From assembly GCA_050733295.1 (NCBI GenBank), contig JBOHSQ010000104.1, positions 1 through 33,648 on the forward strand: a stretch of DNA of 33,648 nt, given 5' to 3'. The position numbers and the translations under genes are program-made. Of this stretch, positions 2,891-27,198 are shown in pieces (position 1 is the stretch's first letter; every line of letters starts with the position of its first letter). Under the pieces are notes generated by a model. It worked only from the letters and a program-made list of their open reading frames with translations. It did not search any database and had not been told where the DNA came from. Source of the DNA: Gemmatimonadales bacterium. Lineage in GTDB: Bacteria > Gemmatimonadota > Gemmatimonadetes > Gemmatimonadales > GWC2-71-9.

Positions 2891-2966
2891 GACGGCCGGA
2901 GACGGGAGGAGACGGGCGGGGACAGGCGGGGACGGGCGGAGGGCGGGAGGTGGCAGGCGGGAAGCG
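2891..2966 (+). repeat. G-rich tandem repeat array, period 10 (GACGGGCGGG-like, about 7 units), starts 1 nt after the HD gene stop
   Basis: gacggccgga/gacgggagga/gacgggcggg/gacaggcggg/gacgggcgga/gggcgggagg/tggcaggcgg read directly from the sequence. Confidence 0.9.
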
Positions 2967-3080
2967 GCTCGACTGGCACGAAACACGCTCACCTGACGTC
3001 ATCGCGGCTCCCCCTGTGCCGCTCAAATCATTGTCAATCAAAGGTTTGCCAAGTCACCGTCGCCGGGGAGCGGGTTTGCG

Positions 3081-3554
3081 ATGACGTGGGAAATGGCATT
3101 TCGTCTGTGCAATCTCGCAGTCGTGCCGGTCTGGCTGCTGATGATCCTCCAGCCCAACTGGCCGGTGACCAAGCAGCTGGTCCGCTGGGCGCCGGTCCCG
3201 ATGTTCCTGTCGGGGATCTACACGCTGCTCGTCATGAGCCACCTTGACCACACCCCGGGTGGCTACAGCTCACTGATCGAGGTGCGGCAGATGTTCTTCC
3301 ACAAGCCGGTGCTGCTGGCCGCGTGGATCCACTACCTCGCGGTGGACCTCCTGCTCGGCGGGTGGATGTTCGAGGAGGCCCGGCGGCTGCACATGCCGCA
3401 CCTGATCCTCGCTCCCTGCCTGCTGCTCACCTTCCTGCTCGGCCCCGTGGGGCTCGGGCTCTTCCTTCTCTTCCGCCTGCGCGCGCTCAGGGGCTCGGCC
3501 GAGGACAAGCGGCTGAGCCTGGGCCACTGGCCGGGGATGTTCAGGACGGAGTAA
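3081..3554 (+). CDS. DUF4281 (ABA4-like) integral membrane protein
   Basis: 157-aa hydrophobic ORF. The N-terminal LAVVPVWLLMILQPNW, then AAWIHYLAVDLLLGGW and LLGPVGLGLFLLFR, match my recollection of the DUF4281 family pattern. Confidence 0.7.
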   Translation: MTWEMAFRLCNLAVVPVWLLMILQPNWPVTKQLVRWAPVPMFLSGIYTLLVMSHLDHTPGGYSSLIEVRQMFFHKPVLLAAWIHYLAVDLLLGGWMFEEARRLHMPHLILAPCLLLTFLLGPVGLGLFLLFRLRALRGSAEDKRLSLGHWPGMFRTE

Positions 3555-3595
3555 GGCGAGACGGGCGAGACGGTCGAGACGGACGGGACGGGCAG
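3555..3595 (+). repeat. G-rich tandem nonamer array (GGCGAGACG x2, GTCGAGACG, GACGGGACG, GGCAG), starts 1 nt after the stop at 3554
   Basis: Period-9 repeat read directly. It fills the gap between convergent genes 3081..3554 (+) and 3603..5006 (-). Confidence 0.9.
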
Positions 3596-3602
3596 ATTCA
3601 GA

Positions 3603-5006
3603 TCAGAATCTGAGAAAGAACTCCAGCAGCGCCTTCTTCCAACGGCTTCCCGGGAACGGTGGGCGGAAGAGACGCACGGGGTTCCAGCGCGGCTGGACGA
3701 AGACCGACTTGTGATGGGAGAGGGTGAAAAAGCCCTCGCGCCCGTGATAGGCGCCCATCCCGCTCTCCCCCACCCCGCCGAACCGCAGGCCCCGCTGGAC
3801 GAAGTGCCATAGCACATCATTGGCGACGAGCTGCCCCGACACGGTGCGCCGCTCGACCTGCTTCCGCCCCTTCGCCCCACCGAACCAGTAGAGCGTGAGC
3901 GGCCTGGGCCGAGCATTCACGTAGTCGATCGCCGCGTCCAGATCATCCACCTCCAGGACCGGCAGGACCGGCCCGAAGATCTCCTCCTTCATCACCCGCA
4001 TTTCCGAGCTGACGCCGAGCAGCACGACGCCCGGGAAGAGCCGGGTCGAAGGATCCGCAGGCTCGTCCGGGAAGACCTCGATCACCCGCGCGCCCTGGCT
4101 TCGCGCCTCGTCCACCAGTGACCGGAGCCGGTCGAAATGGGTCTGGTTCACGATGGTGGTGGTATCGAGGTTGCCGGCCATCCGGCCCGCGCGGAGCCGG
4201 CGTTCATGCCCGGCCACCAGGCGGGCGAACCGTTCCCCTTCCCCACGCGGCACCAGGGCGTAGTCCACCGCGATGCAGGTCTGCCCCGCGTTGAAATACC
4301 GGCCCAAGGCGACACGCTCCGCGGCGAACTCGATCCGCGCGGCCCTCTCGACGATGGCGGGCGACTTGCCGCCCAGCTCGAGGGTCACCGGCACGAGGTT
4401 GGCTGCCGCGACCTGCGCGACCTTGCGGCCGATGGCGGTGCTGCCGGTGAAGAACAGGTGGTCGAAGCGCAGACGGCTGAACTCCTCGCCCACCTCGGGG
4501 CCGCCCTGCACCACCCCCGCCACGTCGGGCGGCAGCGCCGCCGCCACCAGTTCGGCCAAGAGCGCACCGGTGCGCGGCGCCTGCTCCGAGACCTTGAGCA
4601 GCACCCGATTCCCGGCGGCGAGCGCACAGGAGACCGGCATCAGGGCGAGGCTCACCGGATAGTTCCAGGCCGACATCACGCCGACCACGCCGAGCGGCTG
4701 GGGGACGACGTGGGCGCGGGCGAAGAAGCTGTGGATGTCCGCGGCCCGCCACTCGGGGCGCATCCAGGCGCCGAGGTGGCGGCGGAGGTAGCGGCTGTAG
4801 CGGAGCGTGGGGGTGACTTCGCCCCCGAGGGTCTCGGCCGGGGAGCGCTGGCCGAAGTCGGCGCTCACGGCCCGGGTGATGTCGTCGCGGCGATCGAACA
4901 GGACCCGCTCGAGCGCGCGCAGGCGCCCGCGGCGGGTGGCTGCGTCGGGGAACCCGTCGCGGAGGAAGGAGGCTCGCTGGCGCTCGAGGAGGTCGGGGAG
5001 TTTCAA
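3603..5006 (-). CDS. NAD(P)-dependent aldehyde dehydrogenase (coniferyl-aldehyde/class-3-like)
   Basis: 467 aa with FFTGSTAIGRKV, ELGGKSP (catalytic Glu region), NAGQTCIA (catalytic Cys) and EEIFGPVLP. TTG start overlaps the upstream gene stop (TTGA). Confidence 0.9.
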   Translation of the reverse strand: MKLPDLLERQRASFLRDGFPDAATRRGRLRALERVLFDRRDDITRAVSADFGQRSPAETLGGEVTPTLRYSRYLRRHLGAWMRPEWRAADIHSFFARAHVVPQPLGVVGVMSAWNYPVSLALMPVSCALAAGNRVLLKVSEQAPRTGALLAELVAAALPPDVAGVVQGGPEVGEEFSRLRFDHLFFTGSTAIGRKVAQVAAANLVPVTLELGGKSPAIVERAARIEFAAERVALGRYFNAGQTCIAVDYALVPRGEGERFARLVAGHERRLRAGRMAGNLDTTTIVNQTHFDRLRSLVDEARSQGARVIEVFPDEPADPSTRLFPGVVLLGVSSEMRVMKEEIFGPVLPVLEVDDLDAAIDYVNARPRPLTLYWFGGAKGRKQVERRTVSGQLVANDVLWHFVQRGLRFGGVGESGMGAYHGREGFFTLSHHKSVFVQPRWNPVRLFRPPFPGSRWKKALLEFFLRF

Positions 5007-5737
5007 TCCACCGCTTCGATCTTCACGACGATGGCGGTGATGTTGTCGAGCCCGCCACGGTAGTTGGCCTCGGTCACCATGCGGTCGACCCAGGCCTCGG
5101 GACCGCCCTCGGAGCCGAGGATGCGGAGCAGCTGGTCGTCCTCGAGCATGCCGGTGAGGCCGTCGGACGCGAGCAGGATGATGTCGCCGCGGCGCAGGGC
5201 GCCGAAGTAGATGTCGGGCAGGACCTCGCTGCCGGCGCCGACGCAGCGGGTGATGACGTTGCTGTAGGGATGCACGCGCGCCTGGTCGGGCGTCAGCAGC
5301 CCGGCATCCACCTGCTCCTGCACGTAGGAATGGTCCTTGGTGACCTGGAAGAACTCGCCGTCGCGAAGCAGGTAGGCGCGGCTATCGCCGACCTGGCCGA
5401 TGAGGTAGCGGCCGCGCATCAGCACCAGCACGGTGGCGGTGGTGCCCATGCCGCGCTTGTCGTGCTCGGCGAGGGTGCGCTCGTATATGGCCTCGTTGGC
5501 GGCGACGATGGCGGACTGCAGGCGGCGCGAGGCCTCGGTGTCGTCCACGCCGCGCAGGGCGCCAACCTCGCGGGCGATGATGCGCACCGCCATCTCGCTC
5601 GCCACCTCTCCCGCCGCGTGGCCGCCCATCCCGTCGGCCACCACGAAGATCCCCTTGTCCGACAGCATCAGGTAGCTGTCCTCGTTCCCGGACCGGACCA
5701 CCCCGACGTCGGTCCGCGCGGCGCAGGTGTAGTTCAC
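5003..5737 (-). CDS. PP2C-family Ser/Thr protein phosphatase (Stp/PrpC-like)
   Basis: 244 aa with RSGNEDS, ADGMGGHAAGEVAS, ASDGL and DNITAIVV motifs. GTG start lies 4 nt after the FHA gene stop. Confidence 0.9.
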   Translation of the reverse strand: MNYTCAARTDVGVVRSGNEDSYLMLSDKGIFVVADGMGGHAAGEVASEMAVRIIAREVGALRGVDDTEASRRLQSAIVAANEAIYERTLAEHDKRGMGTTATVLVLMRGRYLIGQVGDSRAYLLRDGEFFQVTKDHSYVQEQVDAGLLTPDQARVHPYSNVITRCVGAGSEVLPDIYFGALRRGDIILLASDGLTGMLEDDQLLRILGSEGGPEAWVDRMVTEANYRGGLDNITAIVVKIEAVD

Positions 5738-5741: not shown

Positions 5742-7019
5742 CTATCCGAGAATGAGGGCGGCGGCCGCGGCGAGGGCGGCGAGGATCACCACGATGACGA
5801 CCCAGCGGGTGGCGCTGCTCTGCTTCGGGGCGGCGACGACGACCGGACGGGCGGGACGGGCGGGACGGGCCGGACGGGCCGGTGCCTCGACGGGCAGACG
5901 ATCGGGCAGCGATGGCATCGGGATGGTCCGCTGCCCCTGGGTGGGCGCCGGCAGCTCCGCCGGGTCGAAGAGGACCTTCACCTCGCCGAACCGGATCGAG
6001 GCGCCCGGAGTGAGGACCGCCTCGTCGGCGACGCGTTCGCCGTCGACCCAGGTGCCGTTGGTCGAGCCCTGGTCGGTGAGGATCCAGAGCTCCTCGCGCC
6101 GCTGCAGCTTGGCGTGCACGGTGCTCACGCTCGGGTCGGACAGGACGATGTCGTTGTACTCCGCGCGGCCCACGTTCACGACCGGCGCACGGACCTGGAG
6201 CCGCTCTCCCTTCAGGTCGCCGCTCCGGACCAGGAACGCCGCAAGCGGGCGGGGGGAGGGCTCGGGCCGCGGCGGCAGCCCTGTCGCGCCCGCGCCGACG
6301 GGCAGTCCCATCAGCGTGTCGTTGAGCCGCGCGGCCGCGCCCTCGGGCAGGGGTGGCGGACCGGGCGGGGGGCCGCCTTCCGACGAGAACCGGAACTCCT
6401 CGCTGCCCACGCGGATGAGGTCGCCGCGCGCGAGCAGGATGGTCTCGGGGACGCGCCGGCCGTTCACGAAGGTGCCGTTGGCACCGCGGTCGGTGAGGCG
6501 ATAGCCCTCGGGGCCCGGGGTGATCTCGCAGTGCACCCTGGAGACGTCGTCGCCCTCGACCACGACGTCGGCTGCGGCGTCGCGCCCGATGACGAGCGGC
6601 CTCGCCTCGATGCGGTACTCGCGGCCGTCGGTGAGCGACACGAGGCGGCCGTTGGTCGCGGCCGGCCGGGCAACGGCGGTGTGGTCGGGCACGGCGCGCA
6701 ACCGCTCGGCATCGGCCAGGATGCGGGTGGCACCGGCGCGCTCTTCCTGCACCACGCGGAGCTCGTGGTCTCCCAGGAAGAGCTTGTCGCCGTGGAAGAC
6801 GGGGGTGGGTTCGGCCGAGAGCCGGACGCCGTTCAGCGTGGCCGCGGCGCCGGGGATGGGACGGACGGAAACCGATCCGGTGCGTTCGCGGGTGAGGACG
6901 AGGTGGCGCGGCCGGACGTCTTCGCCGGCGACGACCAAGTCGCACGACGAGTCGGAGCCCACCGTAAAGGAATCACCCGCGAGCGGAAACCGCTGCGAGC
7001 CGAACTCGAGTTGCAGCAT
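5742..7019 (-). CDS. membrane-anchored protein with three FHA domains
   Basis: 425 aa. Three FHA-like modules (GSDSSCDLVV...RPRHLVL; IGRDAAADVVV...SRVHCEI...TDRGANGTFVNG; VGRAEYNDIVL...VSTVHAKL...TDQGSTNGTWVDG). An (ARP)4 stretch is encoded by the nonamer repeat, followed by a C-terminal TM helix (WVVIVVILAALAAAAALILG). Confidence 0.9.
   Translation of the reverse strand: MLQLEFGSQRFPLAGDSFTVGSDSSCDLVVAGEDVRPRHLVLTRERTGSVSVRPIPGAAATLNGVRLSAEPTPVFHGDKLFLGDHELRVVQEERAGATRILADAERLRAVPDHTAVARPAATNGRLVSLTDGREYRIEARPLVIGRDAAADVVVEGDDVSRVHCEITPGPEGYRLTDRGANGTFVNGRRVPETILLARGDLIRVGSEEFRFSSEGGPPPGPPPLPEGAAARLNDTLMGLPVGAGATGLPPRPEPSPRPLAAFLVRSGDLKGERLQVRAPVVNVGRAEYNDIVLSDPSVSTVHAKLQRREELWILTDQGSTNGTWVDGERVADEAVLTPGASIRFGEVKVLFDPAELPAPTQGQRTIPMPSLPDRLPVEAPARPARPARPARPVVVAAPKQSSATRWVVIVVILAALAAAAALILG
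5844..5884 (+). repeat. G-rich nonamer array (CGGACGGGC/GGGACGGGC x4) inside the minus-strand FHA gene
   Basis: The + strand reads ccggacgggcgggacgggcgggacgggccggacgggccgg. On the coding (minus) strand it translates as [12 protein letters not shown]. Confidence 0.9.
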
Positions 7020-7087: not shown

Positions 7088-7163
7088 AGGAAGGCGGGCA
7101 GGCGGGCAGGACGGGCGGGACGGGCAGGACTGGCAGGACGGGCAAGACGGGCGGGAAGGGCGA
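7088..7163 (+). repeat. G-rich nonamer array (about 8 units, AGGACGGGC-like) between the ABC exporter stop and the FHA gene start
   Basis: ggaaggcgggc aggcgggc aggacgggc gggacgggc aggactggc aggacgggc aagacgggc gggaagggc read directly. One unit is 8 nt. Confidence 0.9.
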
Positions 7164-10072: not shown

Positions 10073-10120
10073 AAGGAGGGAGGGAGGGAGGGCGGGAGGG
10101 CGGTGAACGGGGGGTCGGGG
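10073..10120 (+). repeat. (GGGA)n / G-tract block in the divergent region upstream of uvrA
   Basis: aaggagggagggagggagggcgggagggcgg followed by tgaacggggggtcgggggg. Multiple G3+ runs on the + strand. Confidence 0.85.
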
Positions 10121-13173: not shown

Positions 13174-13188
13174 GCGGTGAGCGGTAGC
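13154..13188 (+). repeat. heptamer tandem repeat CGGTGAG x4 + CGGTAGC spanning the uvrA stop and reaching the stop of the convergent gene
   Basis: cggtgag cggtgag cggtgag cggtgag cggtagc. The uvrA TGA (13171-13173) lies inside unit 3. The minus-strand gene stop (13188-13190) starts at the last base of the array. Confidence 0.92.
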
Positions 13189-15690: not shown

Positions 15691-15831
15691 CGGAACCAGA
15701 CTCTCCCGGCGGGGGTATCGGGGCGCATTCTGGATGGTCCACCGCAACCGTTGACCACGCAAGGCGGGGCTGGCGGAACGATCCGGGACGTGCAGGTTAT
15801 CGTCGCCGACCAAACATCGGGAGAGCACCGC

Positions 15832-16806: not shown

Positions 16807-17183
16807 TGGAAGGCGCGCTGCACAACGCGGCGCGCTACGTCGCGCTCGGGTTGGACGGGCTCTCGCTGCTCATGGTCGTGATCGGCGCAGCGGAGGCCAT
16901 CGTCGCCATCGGCCAGCGGGTGGTCCGCGGCCGGACGAGCGGCTGGGAGCGGCGACGGGTGTGGATGGGGTTCGCGCACTGGCTGGTGGCCGCGCTCACC
17001 TTCCAGCTCGGGGCGGACATCGTGCGGACGATCATCGACTCGGGCTGGGAGGAGATCGGCCGAGTGGGGGCGATCGCCGCGATCCGGACGTTCCTGACCT
17101 ACTTCCTGGAGCGGGACATCGAGGCGATGCACGCAACGCAGCGGGAAGCTTCGAGCGGAGGACACGATGCCGGTCCAGGGTGA
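16803..17183 (+). CDS. DUF1622 family small membrane protein
   Basis: 126 aa. LTFQLGADIVRTII and IAAIRTFLTYFLERDIEA match my recollection of the DUF1622 signature. Its start overlaps the FGE stop. Confidence 0.75.
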   Translation: MMEGALHNAARYVALGLDGLSLLMVVIGAAEAIVAIGQRVVRGRTSGWERRRVWMGFAHWLVAALTFQLGADIVRTIIDSGWEEIGRVGAIAAIRTFLTYFLERDIEAMHATQREASSGGHDAGPG

Positions 17184-17820
17184 TCCCGGCGGCCTGCTGA
17201 GCCTCGGGGCGGTGTTCACGCTCTTCTTCGTGACGCTGGGGCCGCTCAAGGTGGTCGGCCCATTCGCCGCGCAGACGCGCGAGTTCGACCGTGCGACGAC
17301 CCGGCGAATCGCCGTGCGCGCCTTCGTCCTGGCAGTGGTGGCGGTACTGGCGGGCGGGTTCGGGGGCCGGTTCCTGATGCAGAACTGGCGGATCTCCGTC
17401 CCGGCAATGATGCTCTCCGGAGGGTTGATCTTCCTCCTGGTCGGGCTGCAGGTGGTGCTGGAGCAGTACCGGCCGGCACCGGCGCCGCCGCCGCTCCCGG
17501 GCGACGCGATGGCCGCAGCGATGCGGGTCACCTTCCCCACCCTGGTCACACCCTACGGGATCGCGGCGCTGATCGTGATGCTGGCGAACACCCAGGACTC
17601 GCAACGCGCGGTCGAGATCGTGGCGATCCTGCTCGGGGTGATGGTGCTCAACCTCCTCGCGATGCTCTTTGCCCACCGGATCGTCGGGGGGATAAGGCAG
17701 GTGGCGCTGCAGATCCTGGGGGCGGTGCTCGGCGTGCTGCAGGTGGCGCTGGCCGCCGAACTGATCCTCCGGGCACTGCAGGACCTGGGAGCGCACCTCG
17801 GCCCGACGGCGGGAGGCTAG
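17167..17820 (+). CDS. MarC family (UPF0056) integral membrane protein
   Basis: 217 aa, about 6 TM segments. The N-terminal FFVTLGPLKVVGPFAAQT and central MLSGGLIFLLVGLQVV resemble the MarC family pattern. It overlaps the preceding gene by 17 nt. Confidence 0.65.
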   Translation: MPVQGDPGGLLSLGAVFTLFFVTLGPLKVVGPFAAQTREFDRATTRRIAVRAFVLAVVAVLAGGFGGRFLMQNWRISVPAMMLSGGLIFLLVGLQVVLEQYRPAPAPPPLPGDAMAAAMRVTFPTLVTPYGIAALIVMLANTQDSQRAVEIVAILLGVMVLNLLAMLFAHRIVGGIRQVALQILGAVLGVLQVALAAELILRALQDLGAHLGPTAGG

Positions 17821-17881
17821 AACCCGGGGGCCGGCCCGGCCACCCGCGGGGAACGCGGGCGCACACGAGGGAGGAGGCGGC

Positions 17882-18352
17882 ATGGACGCGACAACGCCCG
17901 CGCGCGTGGCGGGGCAGCCGGATTTCGACCCGGCAACCGAGCTCGCTGCGCGGCGCACCGGGATGTCGTTTCAGCGGACCCGGCTGAGCGCCGACCGCAC
18001 GCTCATGTCGGTGATGCGGACCTCCCTGTCGCTGATCGGCTTCGGGTTCACCATCTACCAGGTGTTCCAGAAGCTGCAGGAGTCGGAGGTGCTGAGCGGG
18101 GCCCGGGCCGCGCGCAACTTCGGGGTGACCCTGGTGGCCCTCGGCATCGGGATGCTGGTGGTGGGCATCGTCTACCATGTCCGGTTCATGGTGGGGCTCC
18201 GCGAGGAACGGGCCTCCATGAAGGCCGCCGGGCTCATCCACGGCGAGAGCCAGTTCCCGGTGTCGTTCACGCTGGTCATTGCGGTGCTCCTCCTGATCGT
18301 CGGCCTGGTCGCGATCGGGAGCATGGTGTTCCGCGTCGGGCCGTTCGGGTAG
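17882..18352 (+). CDS. DUF202 (YidH-like) membrane protein
   Basis: 156 aa. ELAARRTGMSFQRTRLSADRTLMSVMRTSLSLIGFGF is the duplicated (E/Q)RT motif of DUF202. GAGGGAGGAGG Shine-Dalgarno lies upstream. Confidence 0.75.
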   Translation: MDATTPARVAGQPDFDPATELAARRTGMSFQRTRLSADRTLMSVMRTSLSLIGFGFTIYQVFQKLQESEVLSGARAARNFGVTLVALGIGMLVVGIVYHVRFMVGLREERASMKAAGLIHGESQFPVSFTLVIAVLLLIVGLVAIGSMVFRVGPFG

Positions 18353-18398
18353 GCGCGACGGGCAGGACGGGCAGGACGGGCAGGACGGGCAGGAGCGG
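18353..18398 (+). repeat. G-rich nonamer array (GACGGGCAG x4), starts 1 nt after the DUF202 stop
   Basis: gcgcgacgggcaggacgggcaggacgggcaggacgggcaggagcgg read directly. Confidence 0.95.
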
Positions 18399-18422
18399 TA
18401 ACGCAATCGAGAGGAGCATCAC

Positions 18423-19997
18423 ATGGCACAGAAACCGAGGACGAACAAGTCAAGCCAGTCGAACTCATCCACCCCGCCGAACATCCTGGTGATCTGGGGT
18501 GACGACATCGGGATCGCCAACCTGAGCTGCTACACGCACGGGCTCATGGGCTACCGGACCCCGAACATCGACCGGATCGCGCGGGAGGGGATGATGTTCA
18601 CCGACTCGTACGGCGAGCAGTCGTGCACCGCCGGCCGGGCCGCGTTCATCACCGGGCAGAGCGTGTTCCGCACGGGCCTGTCGAAGGTGGGCCTGCCGGG
18701 CGCGCCGACGGGCATCCAGGGAGAAGACCCGACGATCCCGGAGCTGCTCAAGCCGCTGGGGTACGCGACGGGGCAATTCGGCAAGAACCACTTCGGGGAC
18801 CTGAACCGGTTCCTGCCGACGGTGCACGGGTTCGACGAGTTCTTCGGCAACCTCTACCACCTGAACGCGGAAGAGGACCCGGAGGACCCCGACTATCCCA
18901 CGGATCCGCGGTTCAAGGCGCAGTTCGGCCCGCGCGGGGTGCTCCATTGCCGGGCGACGGACAAGGACGACGCGACCGAGGAACCGCGCTGGGGCCGGGT
19001 GGGCAAGCAGAAGATCCAGGACACGGGGCCGCTCACCCGGAAGCGGATGGAGACCTGCGACGATGAGTTCGTGACGGCGGCCAAGGACTTCATCAAGCGG
19101 CAGCACCGCGCGGGGAAGCCGTTCTTCTGCTGGGTGAGCACCACCCACATGCACCTGCGCACCCACACCAAGCCGAAGAGCCTGGGCCAGGCGGGCCCGC
19201 ACCAGTCGTTCTATCACGACGCGATGGTGGATCACGACAAGAACGTGGGCCAGCTCCTGGACTACCTCGAAGAGCTGGGCATCACGGAGAACACCCTGGT
19301 GATGTACTCCACCGACAACGGGCCCCACATGAACACCTGGCCCGACGGCGGGATGACTCCCTTCCGCAGCGAGAAGAACACCAACTGGGAGGGCGCCTTC
19401 CGGGTGCCGCTCATGGTCCGCTGGCCGGGCAGGATCCCGGCGGGCGTGGTGTCGAACGAGATCGTGCAGCACCACGATTGGCTGCCCACGTTCCTCGCGG
19501 CGGCAGGCGAGCCGGAAATCGTCGAGAAACTCAAGAAGGGCCACAAGGCCGGAGAGAAGCGGTTCAAGGTCCACATCGACGGCTACAACCTGCTGCCGTT
19601 CCTGACCGAGAAGGGGACGAAGAGCCCGCGGCAGGGCTTCATCTACTTCAGCGACGACGGCGACCTGGTGGCCATCCGCGCCGGCAACTGGAAGGCCGTC
19701 TTCATGGAGCAGCGCTGCCAGGGAACGTTGCAGGTATGGGCGGAACCGTTCACCGTGCTCCGGATCCCGAAGCTCTACAACCTGCGCACCGACCCGTTCG
19801 AACGGGCGGACCTCACCTCGAACACCTACTGGGACTGGTACATGTCCAAGGCCTACATGATCATGGCGGCGCAGGCCCTGATCGCGCCCTTCCTGGCCAC
19901 GTTCAAGGACTATCCGCCGCGGCAGAAGGCGGCGAGCTTCACGATCGACCAGGCAATGGAGAAGCTGGCGACTTCACTGAGCGGCGCCGGGCACTGA
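18423..19997 (+). CDS. arylsulfatase-family enzyme (type I sulfatase), no signal peptide
   Basis: 524 aa. NILVIWGDDIG, the FGly motif SCTAGRAAFITGQS (C-x-A-x-R variant), GKNHFGD, YSTDNGPH and NWEGAFRVP. GAGAGGAG Shine-Dalgarno at about 18409. Confidence 0.92.
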   Translation: MAQKPRTNKSSQSNSSTPPNILVIWGDDIGIANLSCYTHGLMGYRTPNIDRIAREGMMFTDSYGEQSCTAGRAAFITGQSVFRTGLSKVGLPGAPTGIQGEDPTIPELLKPLGYATGQFGKNHFGDLNRFLPTVHGFDEFFGNLYHLNAEEDPEDPDYPTDPRFKAQFGPRGVLHCRATDKDDATEEPRWGRVGKQKIQDTGPLTRKRMETCDDEFVTAAKDFIKRQHRAGKPFFCWVSTTHMHLRTHTKPKSLGQAGPHQSFYHDAMVDHDKNVGQLLDYLEELGITENTLVMYSTDNGPHMNTWPDGGMTPFRSEKNTNWEGAFRVPLMVRWPGRIPAGVVSNEIVQHHDWLPTFLAAAGEPEIVEKLKKGHKAGEKRFKVHIDGYNLLPFLTEKGTKSPRQGFIYFSDDGDLVAIRAGNWKAVFMEQRCQGTLQVWAEPFTVLRIPKLYNLRTDPFERADLTSNTYWDWYMSKAYMIMAAQALIAPFLATFKDYPPRQKAASFTIDQAMEKLATSLSGAGH

Positions 19998-20012
19998 GTC
20001 CGGCTTCCGCTG

Positions 20013-20044
20013 GCCGGCGGTGCGTCCCCGGACACACCGCCGGC
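20013..20044. terminator. GC-rich hairpin between convergent genes (10-bp perfect stem, 12-nt loop), no U-tract
   Basis: gccggcggtg (20013-20022) pairs with caccgccggc (20035-20044). It lies between the sulfatase stop (19997) and the stop of 20055..20558 (-). Confidence 0.4.
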
Positions 20045-20054
20045 GTCTGCCGGC

Positions 20055-20558
20055 TCAGGCCGCGGCGTTGCCCCAGCCGCCGGCCCAGGGCCAGGGGAGT
20101 GTCGGGAAGAACCAGGCCGCGAGCAGGGGGAGGAGGTCGCAGCGAAGCTCGAGGATGGAGAGCCCCTGCTCCGCTGCGGGGACGTGCTCGCCGACGTGGG
20201 GCCACGGCGCCGAGGGATCGAAGGGCGCGTCCAGTTCCGAGGCGAGGACGGTCAGCTCCTGGGCGTAGACATGGTCGGCATCACGCCAGAGGCCCCACAT
20301 GCGATGCGACGCGTCCGGGTCGGGCCCGCCATAAGCGGTGACCAGCGCCGACGCCACCCCACCGTGCACCAGCCGCGAAATCCCCTCCCGCCACTGCCGC
20401 TCGTACTCGCCGATGCCCCAGTACCGGAGGTCGGCCAGGAACCGAACCCGGTCAGTGCCAAGGAGCAGCTCGGCCCCGGCCAGGGGTGACCCCTGCCCAT
20501 CGAGCAGCGCGGGCGTGAGAAAGCGGATGCGAAACACCTGTAGTGCCGCCTCATGCAA
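20055..20558 (-). CDS. hypothetical protein
   Basis: 167-aa ORF with non-shadow-like composition (Trp/Tyr/Glu/Leu present) and high GC3. No family recognised. Confidence 0.5.
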   Translation of the reverse strand: MHEAALQVFRIRFLTPALLDGQGSPLAGAELLLGTDRVRFLADLRYWGIGEYERQWREGISRLVHGGVASALVTAYGGPDPDASHRMWGLWRDADHVYAQELTVLASELDAPFDPSAPWPHVGEHVPAAEQGLSILELRCDLLPLLAAWFFPTLPWPWAGGWGNAAA

Positions 20559-20720
20559 GGGACCAGTTCTCGGCCCCCGTCCAGAACCTCCATCTGGGGA
20601 GACGGACGAGGCCTCGCCGCATAGACGGGCAACGGCCGTGCCAGCGGACCGCGCGTGGGACTCGCATCACAAATCTGCGCAACGCACCCCACAGTGGTGG
20701 ATCATTCGGCGGCCCGAGCG

Positions 20721-21212
20721 TCACTGCAGCGCCCGCCCGCACCCGCGACGCGTGGTGAGGCGGTCCAGCACGTACTGCACGGTGGACTCGAAGGCCTCCC
20801 CGCTCATGTCGTCGCGGCAGGGTGCAGCAGCGATGGCCAAGGTGAGCTCGCGTTCCCCGGCCGTGAGGCTCCAGAACCGCCGGCCGGTGGCCGAATCCAC
20901 CTCAGGCGTCCCGCCGGGAAACCGGAGGGTGTCCGCGCCATAGTTGTTCACCAGTACGACGCTGTCCCGCCATACCGTCAGGACCCACCCGGGCTCGTTG
21001 CCCCAGCCCCGAAACTCGGCGCCGGCGAGGCGAATCCGCTCGACATCGGTGTCGCGCACGTTGACCCGGCACTGCCAGGTGCGGTCTTCGTGCTCGAGCG
21101 TCGCCTCGGTGCCCCGGTTCCAGAACACGGTCGAGCCTGCGCCGTATTTCGCACCCGACGCGGACGGCAGGTGCTCGAGCTCGAGGGTGCCATCGGCAAG
21201 GCGGAGCGACAT
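20721..21212 (-). CDS. MliC-family (C-type lysozyme inhibitor) + COG3650-like lipoprotein; the true 5' end very probably lies upstream of this ATG
   Basis: LPSASGAKYGAGSTVFWNRGTEATL...C matches E. coli MliC (ISASGARY...VFWSKGDEAT...C). The C-terminal half has GWGNEPGW ... CRDDMSGEAF ... RRGCG. The same frame is open to 21488 and encodes the first MliC Cys plus a signal peptide/lipobox (LSRLAALSLLIAAC), but contains no ATG/GTG/TTG there. Confidence 0.65.
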   Translation of the reverse strand: MSLRLADGTLELEHLPSASGAKYGAGSTVFWNRGTEATLEHEDRTWQCRVNVRDTDVERIRLAGAEFRGWGNEPGWVLTVWRDSVVLVNNYGADTLRFPGGTPEVDSATGRRFWSLTAGERELTLAIAAAPCRDDMSGEAFESTVQYVLDRLTTRRGCGRALQ

Positions 21213-21481: not shown

Positions 21482-22648
21482 ATGACCATCACGCACGCGG
21501 TCTTCGAATCGTCGGCGGGTCCGTTCGCCCTCCTCTGGAACCAGGCGGGGCTCGCCGGTGTGGCCCTCGCGGCCACCGACGGGGAGCAATCCGGCACGCC
21601 GCGCGTTCCCGACGGCTCGAGCCGGGCTCGCACGGTGCCGGGCTGGGTGCGTCGCACCGCGCGGCGGGTGGGCCGCCACCTGGAGGGCAGCCCGCAGGGG
21701 TTCAGCGACGTCGCGCTCGACGTCTCACGCATCCCACCCTTCCACGCCCGGGTCCTCAAGCTGGTGCGCGGACTCGTGCCCGGCTCGGTGGTGAGCCACG
21801 CCTGGCTGGCCTCCAGGGCCAAGGAGCCCGGCGCCACGCGCGGTGTGAGCCGCGCCATCGCGGGGAATCCGTGGCCGGTCGTGGTACCGTGCCATCGCGT
21901 GGTGGCGTCGGGGGCCCATCCGGGAGGGTACAGCGGCGCCGGCGGTCTCGCCACCAAGGAATGGCTGCTGGCCGCCGAAGGGGTGCGGCTCGACCGCTCG
22001 GTGGCCGCGGGCGGGTATCGCACGACCGGCCTGGCATTCGACGCGCGCGCCGCGCTCGCGGTGCTGGGGCGGGACCCGGTCCTCCGTCCGCTGATGCGCC
22101 GGGGCGGGCCGTTCGCACCGGACCTCGCGCCGGCGCAGAGCCCGTACGAGGCGCTCGCGGAGGCGATCGTGTACCAGCAGCTGAGTGGGCGCGCGGCGGG
22201 CACGATCCATGCCCGGGTGGAGGCGCTGGGCGGGAACCGCTTCCCTTCCCCAGACCGGATGCTGGCGCTGCCGGAGGCGAAGCTGCGCGGGGCAGGCCTC
22301 TCGCGGGCCAAGACCGCCGCGATGCGCGACCTGGCACGGCGAGCGCTCGACGGCACCGTACCGGGGCTCGCCACGCTGCGCCGGCTCCCGGACGACGAGA
22401 TCGTCGAACGGCTGACCGAGGTGCGCGGCGTGGGCCGGTGGACCGTGGAGATGTTCCTGCTCTTCCGGCTGGGCCGCGGGGACGTGTGGCCGGTGGACGA
22501 CCTCGGCGTGCGCAAGGGATTCGCGCGCGCCGCCGGATTCACCGCGATGCCGACTGCGAAGGAGCTGATGGCCGAGGGCGAGCGGTGGCGCCCGTATCGC
22601 TCCGTGGCGGCCTGGTACTGCTGGCGCGCGCTCGACGCCGGGGGCTAG
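21482..22648 (+). CDS. fusion protein: O6-methylguanine-DNA methyltransferase (Ogt/MGMT) N-terminal half + DNA-3-methyladenine glycosylase II (AlkA, HhH-GPD) C-terminal half
   Basis: 388 aa. AIAGNPWPVVVPCHRVV (PCHR active site), then EAIVYQQLSGRAAGTI, LTEVRGVGRWTVEMFLLF (HhH) and WPVDDLGVRKG (catalytic Asp). Confidence 0.88.
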   Translation: MTITHAVFESSAGPFALLWNQAGLAGVALAATDGEQSGTPRVPDGSSRARTVPGWVRRTARRVGRHLEGSPQGFSDVALDVSRIPPFHARVLKLVRGLVPGSVVSHAWLASRAKEPGATRGVSRAIAGNPWPVVVPCHRVVASGAHPGGYSGAGGLATKEWLLAAEGVRLDRSVAAGGYRTTGLAFDARAALAVLGRDPVLRPLMRRGGPFAPDLAPAQSPYEALAEAIVYQQLSGRAAGTIHARVEALGGNRFPSPDRMLALPEAKLRGAGLSRAKTAAMRDLARRALDGTVPGLATLRRLPDDEIVERLTEVRGVGRWTVEMFLLFRLGRGDVWPVDDLGVRKGFARAAGFTAMPTAKELMAEGERWRPYRSVAAWYCWRALDAGG

Positions 22649-24762
22649 GCGCCGGCCTTCGTGGCGGTCCCGGCGCGGGTGGCCGCAACTCCGGCGGGAA
22701 TCGGATAGAGCCCAGTCATCGCACGCTCCCCCGACAGCATGGCCCGGGCGGTCTCGACCGCGGCGCTGGTGCCGGCGAGGGCCACCAGGTCGCCCGCGGC
22801 GAGCCTGGCGTCGGCATCGGGGAACGGGATGCGTTCCTGCCCCCGCACCAGCGCCACCACGGTGGCACCGCTCCGCCCGCGCAGGTTCAGCTCCTTCAGC
22901 GAACGGCCGACCGCCGGGCTGCCCGGCGGGATCGCGGCCGAGGTGGGCGCGCCGATGCCGGGCAGCGTCATCCGCATGACCGCCATCGAATCGGACATGC
23001 CGGCCGTCCCCTGGCGCGCGAGTGCCTCGGCCACAACCTCGGCGGTGGCCCGCACGTGGCCGCGCAGGTCGGCCGCGGTGCGCCAGATGGCGATCACGCC
23101 GAGCAGCAGGACCATCCCCAGCACACCCAGACCGCCGTAGAGCGGGACGAACGGCAGGGTCACCGCCACGAGCGGCGCGGTGATCAGCAGCACGATCATG
23201 ACCTCGATGGTGCGCTGCAGCGCGCTTCGTGGCGCGCGCGCCATGTCGAGATCGGTGGCGCGGCTGGCGAACGCCTGGTCGGCGAGCCGGCGCGCCAGCA
23301 GCCGGCCGTTGCCGATGATCCCGACGAGGAATGGGAACGTGGCCGCGAGGACCAGTGCCACGACCGCCACGCCGGCCGCCCGGGGGCTGAGGCCGAAGTC
23401 GCCCTGCAGCGCGGTCACCGCCCAGGGCCGGGTGAGCGCCGCGCCGATGACGATGGCGGCGAGCACCACCGTGTCGATCACGATCACCCGCACCTCGCGG
23501 GGGCGCGCGGCACCACGCGCCGTATCCCGGGCGGAGCGCAGCCCCTCGAGCCAGGAGCCGTACAGGCCGACCCAGGTCTGGAGCGCCTTGGGAAGCCGGC
23601 GGTCCACCCAGAGGGCGATCTCCTCCGCACGGCCGACGAGCAGCGGGGTGGCGGCGATGGTGAACACCGCGGCCGTGACGGTGACAGCGAGGAAGGAGGG
23701 ATCCACCTGGCGGGAGACCACGGCCAGCCCCGCGATGATGAACGAGAACTCGCCGATCTGGGCGAGCGAGAGCCCGGCCTGGATCGAGGTACGCACCGGA
23801 GAACCGGTGAGGAATGTGCCCACCGTCACCCCGACCAGCTTCCCCACGAACACGACCGCGGTGAAGAGGAGCGCGCTGGGCCAGACGCGCGCGACCACCG
23901 CTGGATCCACAAGCATGCCGATCGCCACGAAGAACACGGCGGCGAAGACGTCGCGCAGGGAGCGAACCGAGTCGGCCACGATGCGGCCCGCGCCGGACTC
24001 GGCCACCAGCGCGCCGGCCACGAACGCGCCCAGTGCCACGGAGAATCCGGCGCGGAGTGCGAGGATGGCAACGGCGAAGGCGAAACCGGTTGCGGCGACG
24101 ACGGTGGTCTCGGCACGGCGGAGGCGGACGACCATGCGCGCGGCGCGGGGCACGACGAGCAGGCCGGCGACGATGAGGGCAGCGACGAAGAGGCCGAGGC
24201 GGGCCATCTCGCCGCCCAGGAAGGAGGCGGAGACGCCCTGGCCACCGACGAGCGCGGTGATGCCCGCCAGCACGACGATGGCGACGAGGTCCTCGAAGAC
24301 GAGGATGCCGTAGGCGCGGTCGGCGACCTCGCCGCCCACGTGGAGCTCCTCGAAGGTGCGGGCCACGACCATCGTGGACGAAACGCAGAACACCGCACCG
24401 GCGAGGACGGCGCCGAGCGGGGAGAAGCCGAGGAGCGACGCGACGAGATAGGCGAGCGAGAAGGTCACGCCCATCTCGAGCGGAGCCACGACACCGCCGG
24501 TCGGCGCCATGCGGGCGAGCTTCTGGATGGTGAAGCCGAGGCCGAGCGAGAACATCAGGAGGATCACGCCGAGGTCGGCGAGGGTGTGGATGACCGCGAC
24601 ATCGACGGTGGGCGTGAAGGCCACGTGCGGCCCGATGAGGACGCCGGCGAGCAGGTAGCCCAGGATGACCGGGAGGTGGAAGCGTTGGAACAGGATCGTG
24701 ACCAGGGCCGCGGTGCAGAGCACAAGGGCGAGGTCGGCGACCAGGTGGAGCGGCGTGGGCAT
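22645..24762 (-). CDS. cation:proton antiporter (CPA2/Kef-type) with C-terminal RCK_C (TrkA-C) domain
   Basis: 705 aa. N-terminus LHLVADLALVLCTAALVTILFQRFHLPVILGYLLAGVLIGPH and about 12 TM segments. The C-terminal GRSLKELNLRGRSGATVVALVRGQERIPFPDADARLAAGDLVALAG is a typical TrkA-C. Confidence 0.9.
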   Translation of the reverse strand: MPTPLHLVADLALVLCTAALVTILFQRFHLPVILGYLLAGVLIGPHVAFTPTVDVAVIHTLADLGVILLMFSLGLGFTIQKLARMAPTGGVVAPLEMGVTFSLAYLVASLLGFSPLGAVLAGAVFCVSSTMVVARTFEELHVGGEVADRAYGILVFEDLVAIVVLAGITALVGGQGVSASFLGGEMARLGLFVAALIVAGLLVVPRAARMVVRLRRAETTVVAATGFAFAVAILALRAGFSVALGAFVAGALVAESGAGRIVADSVRSLRDVFAAVFFVAIGMLVDPAVVARVWPSALLFTAVVFVGKLVGVTVGTFLTGSPVRTSIQAGLSLAQIGEFSFIIAGLAVVSRQVDPSFLAVTVTAAVFTIAATPLLVGRAEEIALWVDRRLPKALQTWVGLYGSWLEGLRSARDTARGAARPREVRVIVIDTVVLAAIVIGAALTRPWAVTALQGDFGLSPRAAGVAVVALVLAATFPFLVGIIGNGRLLARRLADQAFASRATDLDMARAPRSALQRTIEVMIVLLITAPLVAVTLPFVPLYGGLGVLGMVLLLGVIAIWRTAADLRGHVRATAEVVAEALARQGTAGMSDSMAVMRMTLPGIGAPTSAAIPPGSPAVGRSLKELNLRGRSGATVVALVRGQERIPFPDADARLAAGDLVALAGTSAAVETARAMLSGERAMTGLYPIPAGVAATRAGTATKAGA

Positions 24763-24775
24763 CGGGCGAATATAC

Positions 24776-24810
24776 GGGAGGCAGGACGGGCGGGACGGGC
24801 AGGACGGGCA
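24776..24810 (+). repeat. G-rich nonamer array (AGGACGGGC-like x3-4) between the tRNA-Asn terminator and the antiporter start codon
   Basis: gggaggcaggacgggcgggacgggcaggacgggca read directly. Confidence 0.9.
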
Positions 24811-24847: not shown

Positions 24848-24852
24848 GGCAG

Positions 24853-24926
24853 CTCCCGAGGAGGGATTCGAACCCCCGACCCGCTGATTAACAGTCAGCT
24901 GCTCTAACCAACTGAGCTACTCGGGA
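24853..24926 (-). tRNA. tRNA-Asn (anticodon GTT)
   Basis: The reverse complement tcccgagtagctcagttggttagagcagctgactGTTaatcagcgggtcgggggttcgaatccctcctcgggag folds as a cloverleaf: 7-bp acceptor, D-arm gctc/gagc, anticodon loop ctGTTaa, T-arm with ggttcgaatcc. CCA is not encoded. Confidence 0.93.
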
Positions 24927-24937
24927 AGGAGGGATGG

Positions 24938-24966: not shown

Positions 24967-25519
24967 GCTGTTGGAATGCGGGGAGTTAGGGGGGTCGGCC
25001 GGCCTTCGTCCGGGAAAGGCGGGACCGCGGCCTCGGTGAGCGGTGAACGGGCCGCTCCTCGCCCCCGCCCCGGTTGCTTCACCGCAGCAGCGTGGATGGC
25101 GCGGAGGACGGATTGGGGATGGGTGGCACGCGGTCCAGGGAGGTTGGTGTTGAGGTGATGACGTGACAGTGGCGGCAATGCCGCTGGTTGAGGCCCCTGC
25201 GGGACAGACCGCCGATGCGGGGGTGCGGCGGCGGGACAGTGGGTCCTGGGTGGGAGTTATGGCGCCGGACCGGCCAGTTTCCACACGTCGGGAAGTTAGA
25301 CAGCTCGGTCTGCCATCGCGGTACGTCGGGGCAGTGGAGGGAAGCGATCGGTGTGACCGGGATCACAATCGGCAAGTTCCAATGCGCCCAAGAGTTAGGC
25401 AATTTGTGAGCGACTGCTCGCATTTATTTTGATGTGAGTAAGCGCTCGCAAAGCGACACTCAGCCATTTTGGCTCACTGCACAGCGGCCCCGAATCGCAT
25501 AAGTTGTTGTCGAAAAAGA

Positions 25520-25528
25520 TGTTACAAT
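25520..25528 (+). promoter_or_regulatory. candidate extended -10 element (TGtTACAAT) about 42 nt upstream of holB
   Basis: gaTGtTACAATagcc lies in the only AT-rich patch of the window. No convincing -35. Confidence 0.3.
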
Positions 25529-25570
25529 AGCCAGACTCCCCCATTTCGACTTAGCATCTAGTTTGCCACC

Positions 25571-26671
25571 GTGACAATGCACCCGCTGGTGGGACACCTC
25601 GAGGCACGACGGTCCATCGCCGAGGCGGTCGGGGGCGGCAAGCTGCCCCAGACGATCCTGGTGGTGGGGCCGGCAGGGGTGGGGAAGCAGCGGTTCGGGC
25701 TCTGGGTGGCGCAGAGGACCCTTTGTAAGGATGGGCAGGACGGGGAGGTCGAGCCCTGCGGAGAGTGTCGTGAGTGCAGGCTGGTCCTGGGCCTCGCGCA
25801 CCCCGACGTGCACTGGATGATACCGGTCCCGCGGCCGAAGGCCGGCGAGGCCGACAAGCAGGTGGAAGAAGTCGAAGAGGCGATCGCGGGAGTCCTGGCC
25901 GAACGGCGGGAAAAACCGCTGTGGGGCGCACCAGACGGCCTCGCGGGACACGGAGTGGCGACGGCGCGGCTGATCGGACGGCGCGCAGTGCTCACGACGG
26001 TGGAGGGCCGAGGGCGGGTGTTCCTGGTGGGCGACGCGGAGCGGCTCGCGGTTCAGGAAGGCCAGGAGGATGCAGCCAACGCGCTGCTCAAGCTCCTGGA
26101 GGAACCGCCGGGGGGCACGACGTTCGTGCTGACGGCATCGGAGCCGCGGCGGCTCCTGGCGACGATCCGGTCGCGGGCGGTGGCGGTGAGGCTGGGAAGG
26201 CTCACGGACGACGAGGTCCGGGACTTCCTGTCGGCGCGCCTCGACCCGGCGCCCAAGGGGAAGGACCTGGAGGAACGGGTGCGGCGCGCGGAAGGGGCGA
26301 TCGGCGCCGCACTGAGTGACGATGCGGACGAGGCCGCCAAGGCGTATCGCGACGCAGGCACCTTCCTCGAGGCGGTACTGGCGGGACCGGAGACGCGGCT
26401 GGGCGCGGCACTGTCGCAGGGACCGTTCGCGGCACGGGGCGGGTTCACCGCGATGCTCGACGCAATGGCGGACCTGCTGGGCGAGGCGGCGCGCGAGGCG
26501 GCGGGCGGCAAGGCGAGACGGCCGATTCCGCGGGGACTGGGGCGGCGCCCGCTGGACGCGCTGCTGGATGCGCAGGGCCGGGTGGCAGTGGCGCGGGAGG
26601 CGGCGCAGGGGAACGTGAATCCGCAGTTGCTGGCGGGGGTGCTGGGAGTGGAGCTAGGGGCGAGGCTATGA
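25571..26671 (+). CDS. holB: DNA polymerase III subunit delta' (clamp-loader AAA+ subunit)
   Basis: [20 protein letters not shown] (P-loop), zinc module C..x..[41 protein letters not shown] and SRAVAVRL (sensor). GTG 25571 or ATG 25577 as start. Confidence 0.85.
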
Positions 26672-27198
26672 CGGGCGGGGCGGGCGGGACGGGCGGGAAG
26701 CTCTCGCACCTGGACGAGGAAGGACGGCCCCGGATGGTGGATGTCGGGGCGAAGGCGGTGACGGCGCGGGAAGCCGTCGCCTCGGGCTCGGTGAGGATGA
26801 GCCCGGAAGCCCTGAAGGCGCTGGCATCGGGCCTTCCCAAGGGCGAAGTGCTCCGCACCGCGGAGCTGGCCGGCACCCTGGCGGCGAAGCAGACGAGCGT
26901 CCTGATCCCGCTCTGTCACCCGCTGCCGCTCGACACGGTCGAGGTCCGGGCCGAACCGGACACGGGAATGCCGGGCGTGCGAATCACCGCCACAGTGCGC
27001 GCGACCGCGCGCACGGGCGTGGAGATGGAAGCGCTGACCGCAGTCGCCGTCGCGTGCCTGACCGTCTACGACATGGTCAAGGCCGTGGACCGCGGGATGA
27101 CGATCGAAGACATCCGCCTGCTCCGGAAATCCGGTGGAGCGCGCGGCGACTGGGCGAGGCCAGCCGGTCCGGAGGCCAGTCCCGAGGAGGCACGGTGA
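26668..27198 (+). CDS. moaC: cyclic pyranopterin monophosphate synthase
   Basis: [62 protein letters not shown] overlap with the holB stop. The N-terminal [11 protein letters not shown] is encoded by a G-rich repeat (26670-26700). Confidence 0.93.

Follow-up and report, generated by a model that had tools for sequence, protein, structure and literature searches.

What makes short G-rich repeats accumulate along a bacterial chromosome in one orientation only? This question is raised by the window studied here, the entire 33,648-bp contig (JBOHSQ010000104.1) of a metagenome-assembled genome (MAG) of a Gemmatimonadales soil bacterium with about 70% G+C. Tandem arrays of a nonamer unit, GACGGGCRG, lie in this window inside and beside genes of both orientations, and their G-rich strand is always the + strand. 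The closest homologues of the window proteins were labelled Gemmatimonadales. On balance, the arrays are probably a young, lineage-specific and hypervariable family of simple sequence repeats (SSRs) capable of forming G-quadruplexes (G4s), which would arise by slippage and template switching, be tolerated at the ends of open reading frames (ORFs) and in protein loops, and be oriented by replication asymmetry.

G-rich nonamer arrays lie on one strand in the window and in a syntenic relative

The window contained 11 arrays of 27-97 bp, a density of about one array per 3 kb. The initial annotation had listed at least 12. Tandem Repeats Finder (TRF) recovered 10 of these 12 within a few bases (periods 8-10, 3-10 copies), while the tract at 25737-25760 proved to be a single dimer and the one at 10073-10120 a different repeat. 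The claim that the G-rich strand is always + was borne out: GACGGGC[AG]G was counted 30:0 (+:-) and the shorter GACGGG 67:7. The two-unit 18-mer GACGGGCRGGACGGGCRG, with up to 3 mismatches allowed, gave 30 matches in the window, on + only, against 1.70 +/- 1.40 (maximum 7) expected from dinucleotide shuffles. All arrays were made of 8-10-nt units directly adjoining head-to-tail, with no spacers, palindromes or terminal inverted repeats, and each had its own dominant unit variant together with mixed 8-, 9- and 10-nt periods. No shared flanking sequence or target duplication was found at the arrays, and no nonamer array was among the 25 longest inverted pairs listed for the window.

The same polarity was observed in the closest relative (P0001), which is represented by a 69.7-kb ENA contig syntenic with the window at about 85% DNA identity. 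The 42,156 bp read from it (stretches L201, L117 and L202) held 14 arrays when merged and 16 when not; every one lay on the strand that corresponds to + of the window, with unit counts on the same and the opposite strand of 43:1, 6:0 and 7:0. The arrays are thus present, on the same strand and over a further 42 kb, in an independently assembled relative. In a third relative from a farmland sample (L203), the strand count was 3:0.

Known classes of repeats and mobile elements were considered as well. A CRISPR array was rejected, as it needs 23-50-nt repeats with unique spacers and the units here are adjoining 8-10-mers. REP/BIME or MITE elements were rejected because the arrays are G-rich on one strand, without palindromes or terminal repeats, and no RAYT or transposase was encoded in the scanned ORFs. 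Domain scans of 30 window ORFs detected no transposase, RAYT, reverse transcriptase or cas gene, and the gene lists of the syntenic relative (42 kb) held no transposase, RAYT or reverse transcriptase. The earlier statement that the repeats are not CRISPR, not palindromic and not accompanied by a transposase in the window agreed with these scans and with the adjoining units. An Rfam scan of the window returned only two tRNAs and no other known RNA family, and literature searches for the repeat sequence and for Gemmatimonas together with tandem repeats gave no matches.

Strand asymmetry of the region and G-quadruplex capability

With the arrays masked, the window had a GC skew of +0.073 (z = 11) and L117 one of +0.060. 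At third codon positions, GC3 skew on the + strand was +0.11 in + genes and +0.19 in - genes of the window, and AT3 skew was +0.21 and +0.35, respectively. The ENA relative gave the same third-position picture, with G>C and A>T on + in both gene orientations (AT3 up to +0.36). Since the skew follows the strand and not the direction of transcription, it has the signature of replication, and the + strand is presumed to be the leading strand. As far as composition can tell, this is most likely the case. Outside PolC-type bacteria, it is unusual for the presumed leading strand to be rich in purines instead of keto bases.

Other G-rich words lean to the + strand as well (GGAGG 123:43, GGGGG 74:23), and isolated GACGGGC was distributed 10:1 in the window and 12:3 in the relative, about 85:15 to +. 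The arrays therefore follow the general polarity of the region, lying on the skew-positive strand beside genes of both orientations. The seed skew of 85:15 makes the one-strand polarity less improbable than a 50:50 null suggests; by our own calculation, with p = 0.85 per locus, the probability of 16 loci all on one strand is about 0.07, not 10^-5. Among the mechanisms proposed in the initial annotation, a replication-linked, strand-specific slippage is favoured here too, given the replication-type G excess in genes of both orientations.

Putative quadruplex sequences (PQS) of the G3N1-7 type numbered 21 on + and 1 on - in the window, where about 10 and 1.4 were expected from composition. Nine of the 12 listed tracts overlapped a regular-expression PQS and eight had a G4Hunter score of at least 1.26, so that most arrays are predicted to be G4-capable by sequence rule. 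The earlier claim that the arrays satisfy the rule of four G3 runs separated by N1-7 thus stood for most of them, but not for the array at 3555-3595, which has three GGG runs.

Array insertions in uvrA and turnover among relatives

The window UvrA (gene at 10177-13173, +) is 998 aa long, as compared with the usual 932-937 aa among 120 UvrA homologues. The alignment showed that three arrays in this gene are insertions at three loop sites, without counterpart in most Gemmatimonadales orthologues. Site 1 (10644-10740, +; TRF 10644-10739, 10.2 copies) is the longest array of the window, with 10 units of 9 or 10 nt, and encodes TGGTGGTGRTGRTGKTGRDGRRRAGTGGDGQ. Site 2 (10901-10953, +; TRF 10902-10945) encodes RDGQDGQDGQDGQDG. 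Site 3 (12785-12834, +; TRF 12786-12822, period 8) is of the GGCGGGCA type with period 8-9, encodes TTAGGRAGGQAGKRTEGG, and sits between the ABC signature and Walker B motifs. Two further arrays are coding and in frame: the one at 5844-5884 (+; TRF 5843-5882) lies inside the minus-strand FHA-domain gene (5742-7019), where 13 residues are read in frame from its C-rich strand, and the one at 26670-26700 (+; about 3 units; TRF 26670-26698) shares bases with the holB stop (ATGA) and supplies codons 2-11 (10 residues) of moaC. No alternative in-frame start codon precedes the conserved LSHLD motif of moaC. The initial annotation had missed that the three uvrA arrays are in frame in a + gene and that 26670-26700 is the moaC N-terminus.

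A collagen-like (Gly-X-Y)n tract was considered and rejected for the window, since DGQDGQ occurs only at uvrA site 2, with TGR, RAG and PAR in the others; frame changes within arrays and the existence of non-coding arrays also oppose it.

In the closest relative, whose UvrA is 86% identical and 977 aa long, shorter and different repeat tracts occupy the same three uvrA sites. A separate lineage (P0040) carries an independent DGRDGQHGQDGQDG tract at site 2, and no repeat tract was found at the three sites in any other aligned orthologue. In P0040 (UvrA 73% identical), the nonamer had expanded independently at the same UvrA loop as DGRDGQHGQDGQDG (L199, 10636-10677); no further nonamer array was present in the 21.7 kb of L199, which instead held (CCGCTTA)x15.6 and (CTTTCCC)x5.4. 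L198, fully syntenic and with 81% UvrA identity, had no nonamer arrays and had other short repeats at some of the same gene ends. The more distant L118 and L119, the only Gemmatimonadales-like uvrA loci among the metagenome matches listed, had none either. Array-free orthologues bear short look-alike seeds, namely GGGACGGGG and CAGGCGGGCC at uvrA sites 2 and 3, the seed at site 2 being of the GACGGGG kind.

Array sites shared with the ENA contig were those after the HD-domain and ABA4-like gene stops, in the FHA gene, in the spacer between the FHA and ABC transporter genes, at the three uvrA sites and ahead of the antiporter gene. At shared sites, copy number and unit variant vary between the window, L117 and L203; this comparison of orthologous loci had been proposed in the initial annotation. 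Arrays private to the ENA contig lie after a Cys/Met-metabolism gene, in holB and in the decarboxylase gene. The first of these sites records a replacement: in the relative L200 (about 893-975), the Cys/Met-metabolism gene is followed by an intact hairpin of (GTGAGAC)n/(GTCTCAC)n and then a T-run, and at L201 (790-880) the 5' hairpin arm is replaced from the stop codon on by (GACGGGCAG)4, so that the hairpin is destroyed. The 3' arm is intact there and the junction shares GACG.

The loop insertions in uvrA, the drift of the reading frame inside a uvrA array through admixed 10-nt units, and the reading of the opposite strand in the FHA gene together suggest that a DNA-level process rather than peptide selection is behind the arrays. 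As judged from the compared sequences, the expansion of the nonamer family was recent and confined to one sublineage, and its arrays behave like variable-number tandem repeats.

Placement of the arrays relative to genes

Genes were mapped by GC3 frame analysis plus Pfam; the GC3-based gene caller is approximate (the PLP-decarboxylase region was mis-called), and context counts made with it are rough beyond the window and the ENA contig. Besides the five coding arrays (three in uvrA, one each in the FHA gene and moaC), six arrays are in short spacers, most of them flush against an ORF end. About 90% of the contig is coding, and intergenic DNA is enriched for arrays about 16-fold per base (6-7 of 11 arrays in the roughly 10% that is non-coding).

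The array at 2891-2966 (+), with 5-8 GACGGGCGGA-type units of 9-10 nt (TRF 2891-2941/2961, period 10), directly follows, without a gap, the TAG (2888-2890) that ends the HD-domain gene (1604-2890, +); the next + gene is 114 nt on, and the orthologous array, at L117 2595-2652, has different units. At 3555-3595 (+), GGCGAGACG x4.3 (TRF 3555-3593) fills the spacer between the convergent ABA4-like gene (3081-3554, +; stop 3552-3554) and aldehyde dehydrogenase gene (3603-5006, -; stop 3603-3605), and its orthologue at L117 3258-3333 has 8 units. About 8 units occupy 7088-7163 (+; TRF 7095-7161), where a spacer separates the start of the FHA gene (7019) from the stop (7171) of the ABC transporter gene (7171-~8961, -). 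This array is C-rich in the transcript, both neighbouring genes being minus-strand, and its orthologue (L117 6871-6960) has 10 units. The repeat at 10073-10120 (+), in the divergent spacer between the LPG-synthase-like gene (8970-~10064, -) and uvrA, is G-rich but not a nonamer array; it consists of GGAG/GGGAGGGC (GGAG/GGGC) with period 4/8, and the syntenic relative has a true 7-unit nonamer array in this spacer.

Further on, the tract at 18353-18398 (+) starts on the first base past the TAG stop (18350-18352) of the DUF202 gene (17882-18352, +) and ends 24 nt ahead of the sulfatase gene (18423-19997, +). It contains a perfect (GACGGGCAG)x4 from 18357 (TRF 18357-18394, 4.2 copies, 100% matches). 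The array at 24776-24810 (+; about 3.5 units; TRF 24780-24810) is 13 nt upstream of the start (24762) of the minus-strand Na+/H+ antiporter gene (22645-24762) and, on the minus strand, just downstream of tRNA-Asn (24852-24926, -) and a terminator (24847-24818). Its orthologue has 4.5 units in L203, compared with 3.5 in the window, and mixes 8-mer and 9-mer units in L117. Along the minus strand, tRNA-Asn is thus followed by the terminator with TTTTT, the nonamer array and the antiporter start codon, with almost no room for a promoter. The array at the moaC N-terminus lies where holB (25571-26671, +) and moaC (26668-27198, +) overlap. Inside holB, the degenerate dimer (25730-25760, +) is single and not an array; the syntenic relative has a 4-unit array elsewhere in this gene.

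With the G-rich strand as reference, the arrays are mostly nearer to the ORF on their 5' side. Four begin 0-1 nt past the stops of + genes (2891, 3555, 18353 and 26670), and two tracts are 8-13 nt from the starts of minus-strand genes (10073 and 24776). The distances to the 5' neighbour were 0, 0, 68, 8, 0, 13 and -2 nt in the window and 0, -1, -2, 61, 38 and 10 nt in the syntenic relative. Each genome has one clear exception, the FHA-ABC spacer (7088-7163 in the window, nearer to the ABC transporter stop), and the relative's array in the LPG-uvrA spacer ties in its distance to either neighbour. The initial annotation had placed arrays within the FHA gene, downstream of the ABC gene and upstream of the antiporter gene, all three on the minus strand, and these contexts were correct. 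Its statement that no annotated feature explains their density and strict polarity took no account of the five coding insertions, or of the agreement of the intergenic arrays with the position rule published for G-rich SSRs (PMC4692102). Strong terminators with a hairpin and T-run were only two in 33.6 kb (24847-24818 and 28070-28110), and neither is built of nonamers.

The nonamer unit in other genomes

A scan for (GACGGGCAG)x3 in one genome per species returned at least 116 loci. Among the matches listed, most were single matches in Streptomyces and other high-GC taxa, mainly inside genes, and by context 43 were G-sense, 16 C-sense and 50 intergenic. Several matches in other phyla (L030, L043, L092 and L116) were in-frame G-Q-D, that is, collagen-like Gly-X-Y tracts, so that the spread of the 27-mer across phyla is of mixed cause.

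Several Gemmatimonadales MAGs had many matches each among those listed; their G+C was 64-68% and they showed little replication-type skew. Here the arrays occurred on both strands of one locus, within 100-300 bp, typically as a G-array followed by a C-array 20-170 bp apart at a convergent gene junction. Each arm started 0-6 nt past a stop codon and was G-rich on the sense strand of that gene, and one array followed a tRNA. By the approximate gene caller, the arrays no more than 10 nt from a stop were 12 G-sense and 0 C-sense. No clear relation between GC skew and array orientation was seen in 8-kb loci of these MAGs, the loci being short and their skew dominated by gene orientation. The repeat is not intrinsically one-stranded: it is oriented by gene direction in the other MAGs and probably by replication-type asymmetry in the lineage of the window. 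The strict polarity that had been claimed is therefore a property of the window and the 42 kb of its relative, but not of the nonamer in other Gemmatimonadales MAGs, where it stands on both strands.

Gene neighbourhood and other repeats

The PEPCK gene (2-1576, +) is cut by the left contig end, and the product on record is a partial one of 520 aa, as compared with 533 aa in relatives. The remaining mapped genes were those of a PP2C protein (5003-5737, -) and a PLP-dependent decarboxylase (14272-~15700, -). A block of about 5 kb (~15700-20725), with genes for DUF1622, MarC, DUF202, the sulfatase and a CdiI_N-like protein, has no counterpart on the syntenic ENA contig. With a lower G+C of about 0.66, it nonetheless carries a perfect nonamer array (18357-18392). 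The CdiI_N-like immunity gene is at 20055-20558, without CdiA nearby.

Repeats with other units were also observed at gene ends. A perfect heptamer array, (CGGTGAG)x4.6 at 13154-13185, supplies the uvrA stop TGA (13171-13173) and the last UvrA residues, and fills the spacer up to the stop of a convergent gene (13188-13190). Relatives have heptamers at gene ends too: in L117, (GAGTCGC)n occupies 12935-12975 and 16100-16175, and in L200, (GTGAGAC)n occupies about 2521-2585 and 6925-6960. With TGA inside a heptamer, each of the three frames meets a stop, and this would account for the start of heptamer arrays at stop codons. Between convergent SLT genes (27954-28183), (CGCGGAGG)n at 27961-27997 and its complement at 28115-28143 form an inverted pair of 8-nt repeats that flanks a canonical terminator with a 19-bp hairpin and T-run (28070-28110); this G-rich family is not one-stranded. 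Similar CACCGCRGAGG... elements were found after PEPCK (L117 about 1100-1320, L200 about 11602-11810) and at L201 about 3770-3890.

Possible origins of the arrays

In the explanation that we lean towards, arrays would be born at short GACGGG- or GGCGGGC-like seeds, lengthen or shorten through replication slippage, to which template switching between arrays probably adds, and persist where they do least harm, namely in short spacers and, within proteins (UvrA, the FHA protein and MoaC), in surface loops or at termini. Arrays may be tolerated in coding sequence because 9 nt equal three codons and the unit is stop-free in all six frames. The G-rich repeat strand would coincide with the strand rich in G and A, presumably the one that is made as nascent leading strand and serves as lagging-strand template, and orientation-dependent formation or stability of G4s may yield the strand bias. 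No cellular function would be required for the arrays. The array-specific unit variants, mixed periods and unshared flanks point to local slippage with occasional template switching, and a discrete mobile element fits them poorly.

Several points weigh against this explanation. Two syntenic genomes contribute about 76 kb to the sample and a third contributes 4 kb, and orthologous arrays are not independent events. The assignment of + as the leading strand comes from skew, origin and terminus being outside the stretches read. In other MAGs the unit is on both strands and follows genes, so transcription or function can set its orientation. Plain slippage leaves unexplained both the presence of one unit at many loci and the frequent start of arrays on the base past a stop. 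A G4 on the lagging-strand template would favour contraction too, and the direction of the bias was not derived from first principles. The inverted pair of (CGCGGAGG)n at 27954-28183 shows that not every G-rich repeat is polar.

The main rival, which we consider possible but unlikely, is that the arrays are functional elements of transcript 3' ends. Directly behind the stop codon, a G-rich RNA or a hairpin of G-array and C-array would act as terminator or in the protection of mRNA 3' ends, and antisense C-rich RNA could be a loading site for Rho, with the polarity of the window being secondary. It accounts well for the other Gemmatimonadales MAGs, where 12 of 12 stop-abutting arrays are G-rich on the sense strand from 0-6 nt past the stop, convergent genes have inverted pairs of G- and C-arrays, and an array follows a tRNA. 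The four window arrays that start 0-1 nt past + gene stops, the scarcity of canonical terminators (two strong ones in 33.6 kb), the likeness of heptamer inverted pairs with a T-run to terminators, and the Xanthomonas repeats, which are transcribed and lie within 50 bp of stops on the coding strand (PMC4692102), point the same way. However, the arrays at the ends of minus-strand genes are C-rich in the mRNA (7088-7163, 3555-3595 and their L117 orthologues), five arrays are within coding sequence, the array at 24776-24810 lies between a terminator and a start codon, the convergent ABA4/aldehyde dehydrogenase pair has one arm only, and close relatives have no arrays at the same gene ends; nor was a regulatory role found by Rehm et al. 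(PMC4692102).

It is improbable, in our judgement, that the lineage has a directional, replication-coupled 'repeat-writing', in which G4-prone units are template-switched between loci on one strand, overwriting ORF ends (the replaced arm of the heptamer hairpin would be an instance) and invading loops of essential genes, or equivalently dense lagging-strand gap sites like the E. coli RRS, one per about 3 kb. A polarity without any mechanism of its own, in which neutral SSRs mirror the roughly 85:15 skew of GACGGGC seeds together with shared ancestry, seems quite improbable too. It is in line with the isolated seeds (10:1 and 12:3), with the probability of about 0.07 for 16 one-strand loci, and with the orthology of many window and L117 arrays. 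But base composition is skewed by about 0.07, far less than the seeds, some of which may be array remnants; arrays private to one genome likewise lie on + without exception (the window's 18353; the relative's 790, 6975, 27939 and 33969), and PQS stand at 21:1 where about 10:1.4 was expected from composition. That the arrays are polar signals of chromosome organisation or replication, either KOPS- or Chi-like origin-to-terminus motifs or RRS-like programmed G4 gap sites, is very unlikely. Their orientation is strictly that of the G-rich strand over about 76 kb, and some units contain GGGCAGGG, which is the E. coli KOPS consensus, or GAGACGGG, which differs from the B. subtilis SRS at one position. 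Yet GGGNAGGG is unskewed outside arrays (5:6 and 5:4), the known polar motifs are single octamers and not tandem arrays, and the arrays are wholly absent from close relatives, with inverted pairs tolerated in other MAGs. The native E. coli RRS does have its G4 strand on the lagging-strand template (PMC13308219), but RRS are two conserved 222-bp elements and not hundreds of variable arrays. We give an equally low probability to a dedicated agent that would insert the unit at favoured places such as ORF ends, be it a mobile element, an HUH/RAYT-type single-strand transposase that uses the lagging-strand template, or a templated polymerase akin to reverse transcriptase or telomerase. Such an agent would suit the appearance of one unit at many loci within a short evolutionary time, the arrays beginning on the base past stop codons and the replacement of one repeat family by another at exactly the same position, and the replication polarity of IS200/IS605-type single-strand transposition is a precedent. 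Against it, the arrays lack conserved flanks, terminal inverted repeats and target duplications, neither the window nor the relative's 42 kb encodes a transposase, RAYT or reverse transcriptase, seeds exist at the insertion sites, and array-specific unit variants with mixed periods fit local slippage better than one template. An assembly or sequencing artefact is effectively refuted. The window is indeed a short MAG contig and G-rich repeats are error-prone, but arrays of 27-97 bp keep long ORFs in frame, arrays stand at the same positions in assemblies from other samples, and the unit also occurs in Gemmatimonadales MAG contigs of 0.4-0.8 Mb.

For the study of how bacterial G4-capable repeat families are generated and oriented, this lineage is an unusually clean case, being dense and young with array-free sisters, and the contrast with gene-oriented sister lineages allows one to ask whether replication or transcription sets G4-repeat polarity. 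A stop-free nonamer can insert repeatedly into conserved proteins such as UvrA and is thus a source of rapid low-complexity insertions. Arrays also make ORFs longer, and gene callers and aligners run on high-GC MAGs can be misled by them. Were repeat-writing or the gap-site reading true, it would be a strand-specific mutational or architectural system undescribed in bacteria.

Comparison with known systems

In the E. coli RRS, according to a 2026 preprint, the G4 strand folds and blocks synthesis essentially only as the lagging-strand template, and gap formation was shown experimentally at two conserved 222-bp elements symmetric about dif (PMC13308219). The arrays are like the RRS in having a G4-capable strand in fixed orientation to replication, the orientation here being deduced from skew. 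Unlike the RRS, they are 27-97 bp long, variable, numerous and absent from close relatives. The orientation dependence of the RRS offers a plausible route to strand-specific repeat instability. Polar oligomers such as KOPS, Chi and the 'architecture-imparting sequences' are single G-rich octamers co-oriented with the leading strand, and KOPS or Chi are recognised by FtsK or RecBCD. The nonamer arrays share with them G-richness and an overwhelmingly single orientation, but are tandem and absent in close relatives; the KOPS consensus GGGNAGGG outside arrays was unskewed, at 5:6 in the window and 5:4 in the relative. Eukaryotic minisatellites such as CEB1 and telomeric repeats are G4-capable arrays whose stability depends on fork orientation, the unstable orientation in yeast being that with the G-rich strand as leading-strand template. 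The nonamer units differ in being shorter, bacterial and a dispersed intergenic family. With REP/BIME, MITE and CRISPR, the arrays have in common that they are short repeats mainly in intergenic DNA.

The closest known systems are the GGGAATC family of Xanthomonas and the GGGGA(C/T)T family of Nostoc/Anabaena (cyanobacterial STRR type), both of which fold into G4s in vitro (Rehm et al. 2015, PMC4692102). These SSRs showed no leading- or lagging-strand preference and no regulatory role was found; the Xanthomonas repeats are transcribed, lie within 50 bp of stops on the coding strand and number 186 in X. campestris (PMC4692102). In common with them, the nonamer arrays are dispersed head-to-tail G-rich units, often about four, in excess in non-coding DNA and nearer to the 5' ORF, with occasional inverted pairs and with conserved positions but variable length and sequence. 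Unlike the heptamers (GGGNATC), the unit is a nonamer, GACGGGCRG, of 9-10 nt, found in the phylum Gemmatimonadota, and its density of about one array per 3 kb is roughly ten-fold above that in X. campestris. With 186 repeats in a genome of about 5 Mb, X. campestris has roughly one per 27 kb. The nonamer arrays further differ in being often in frame inside conserved genes and in having one orientation, which matches GC skew. By unit and arrangement, the nonamer family is thus to be classed as the same kind of element as the Rehm-type SSRs, and not as a member of that sequence family.

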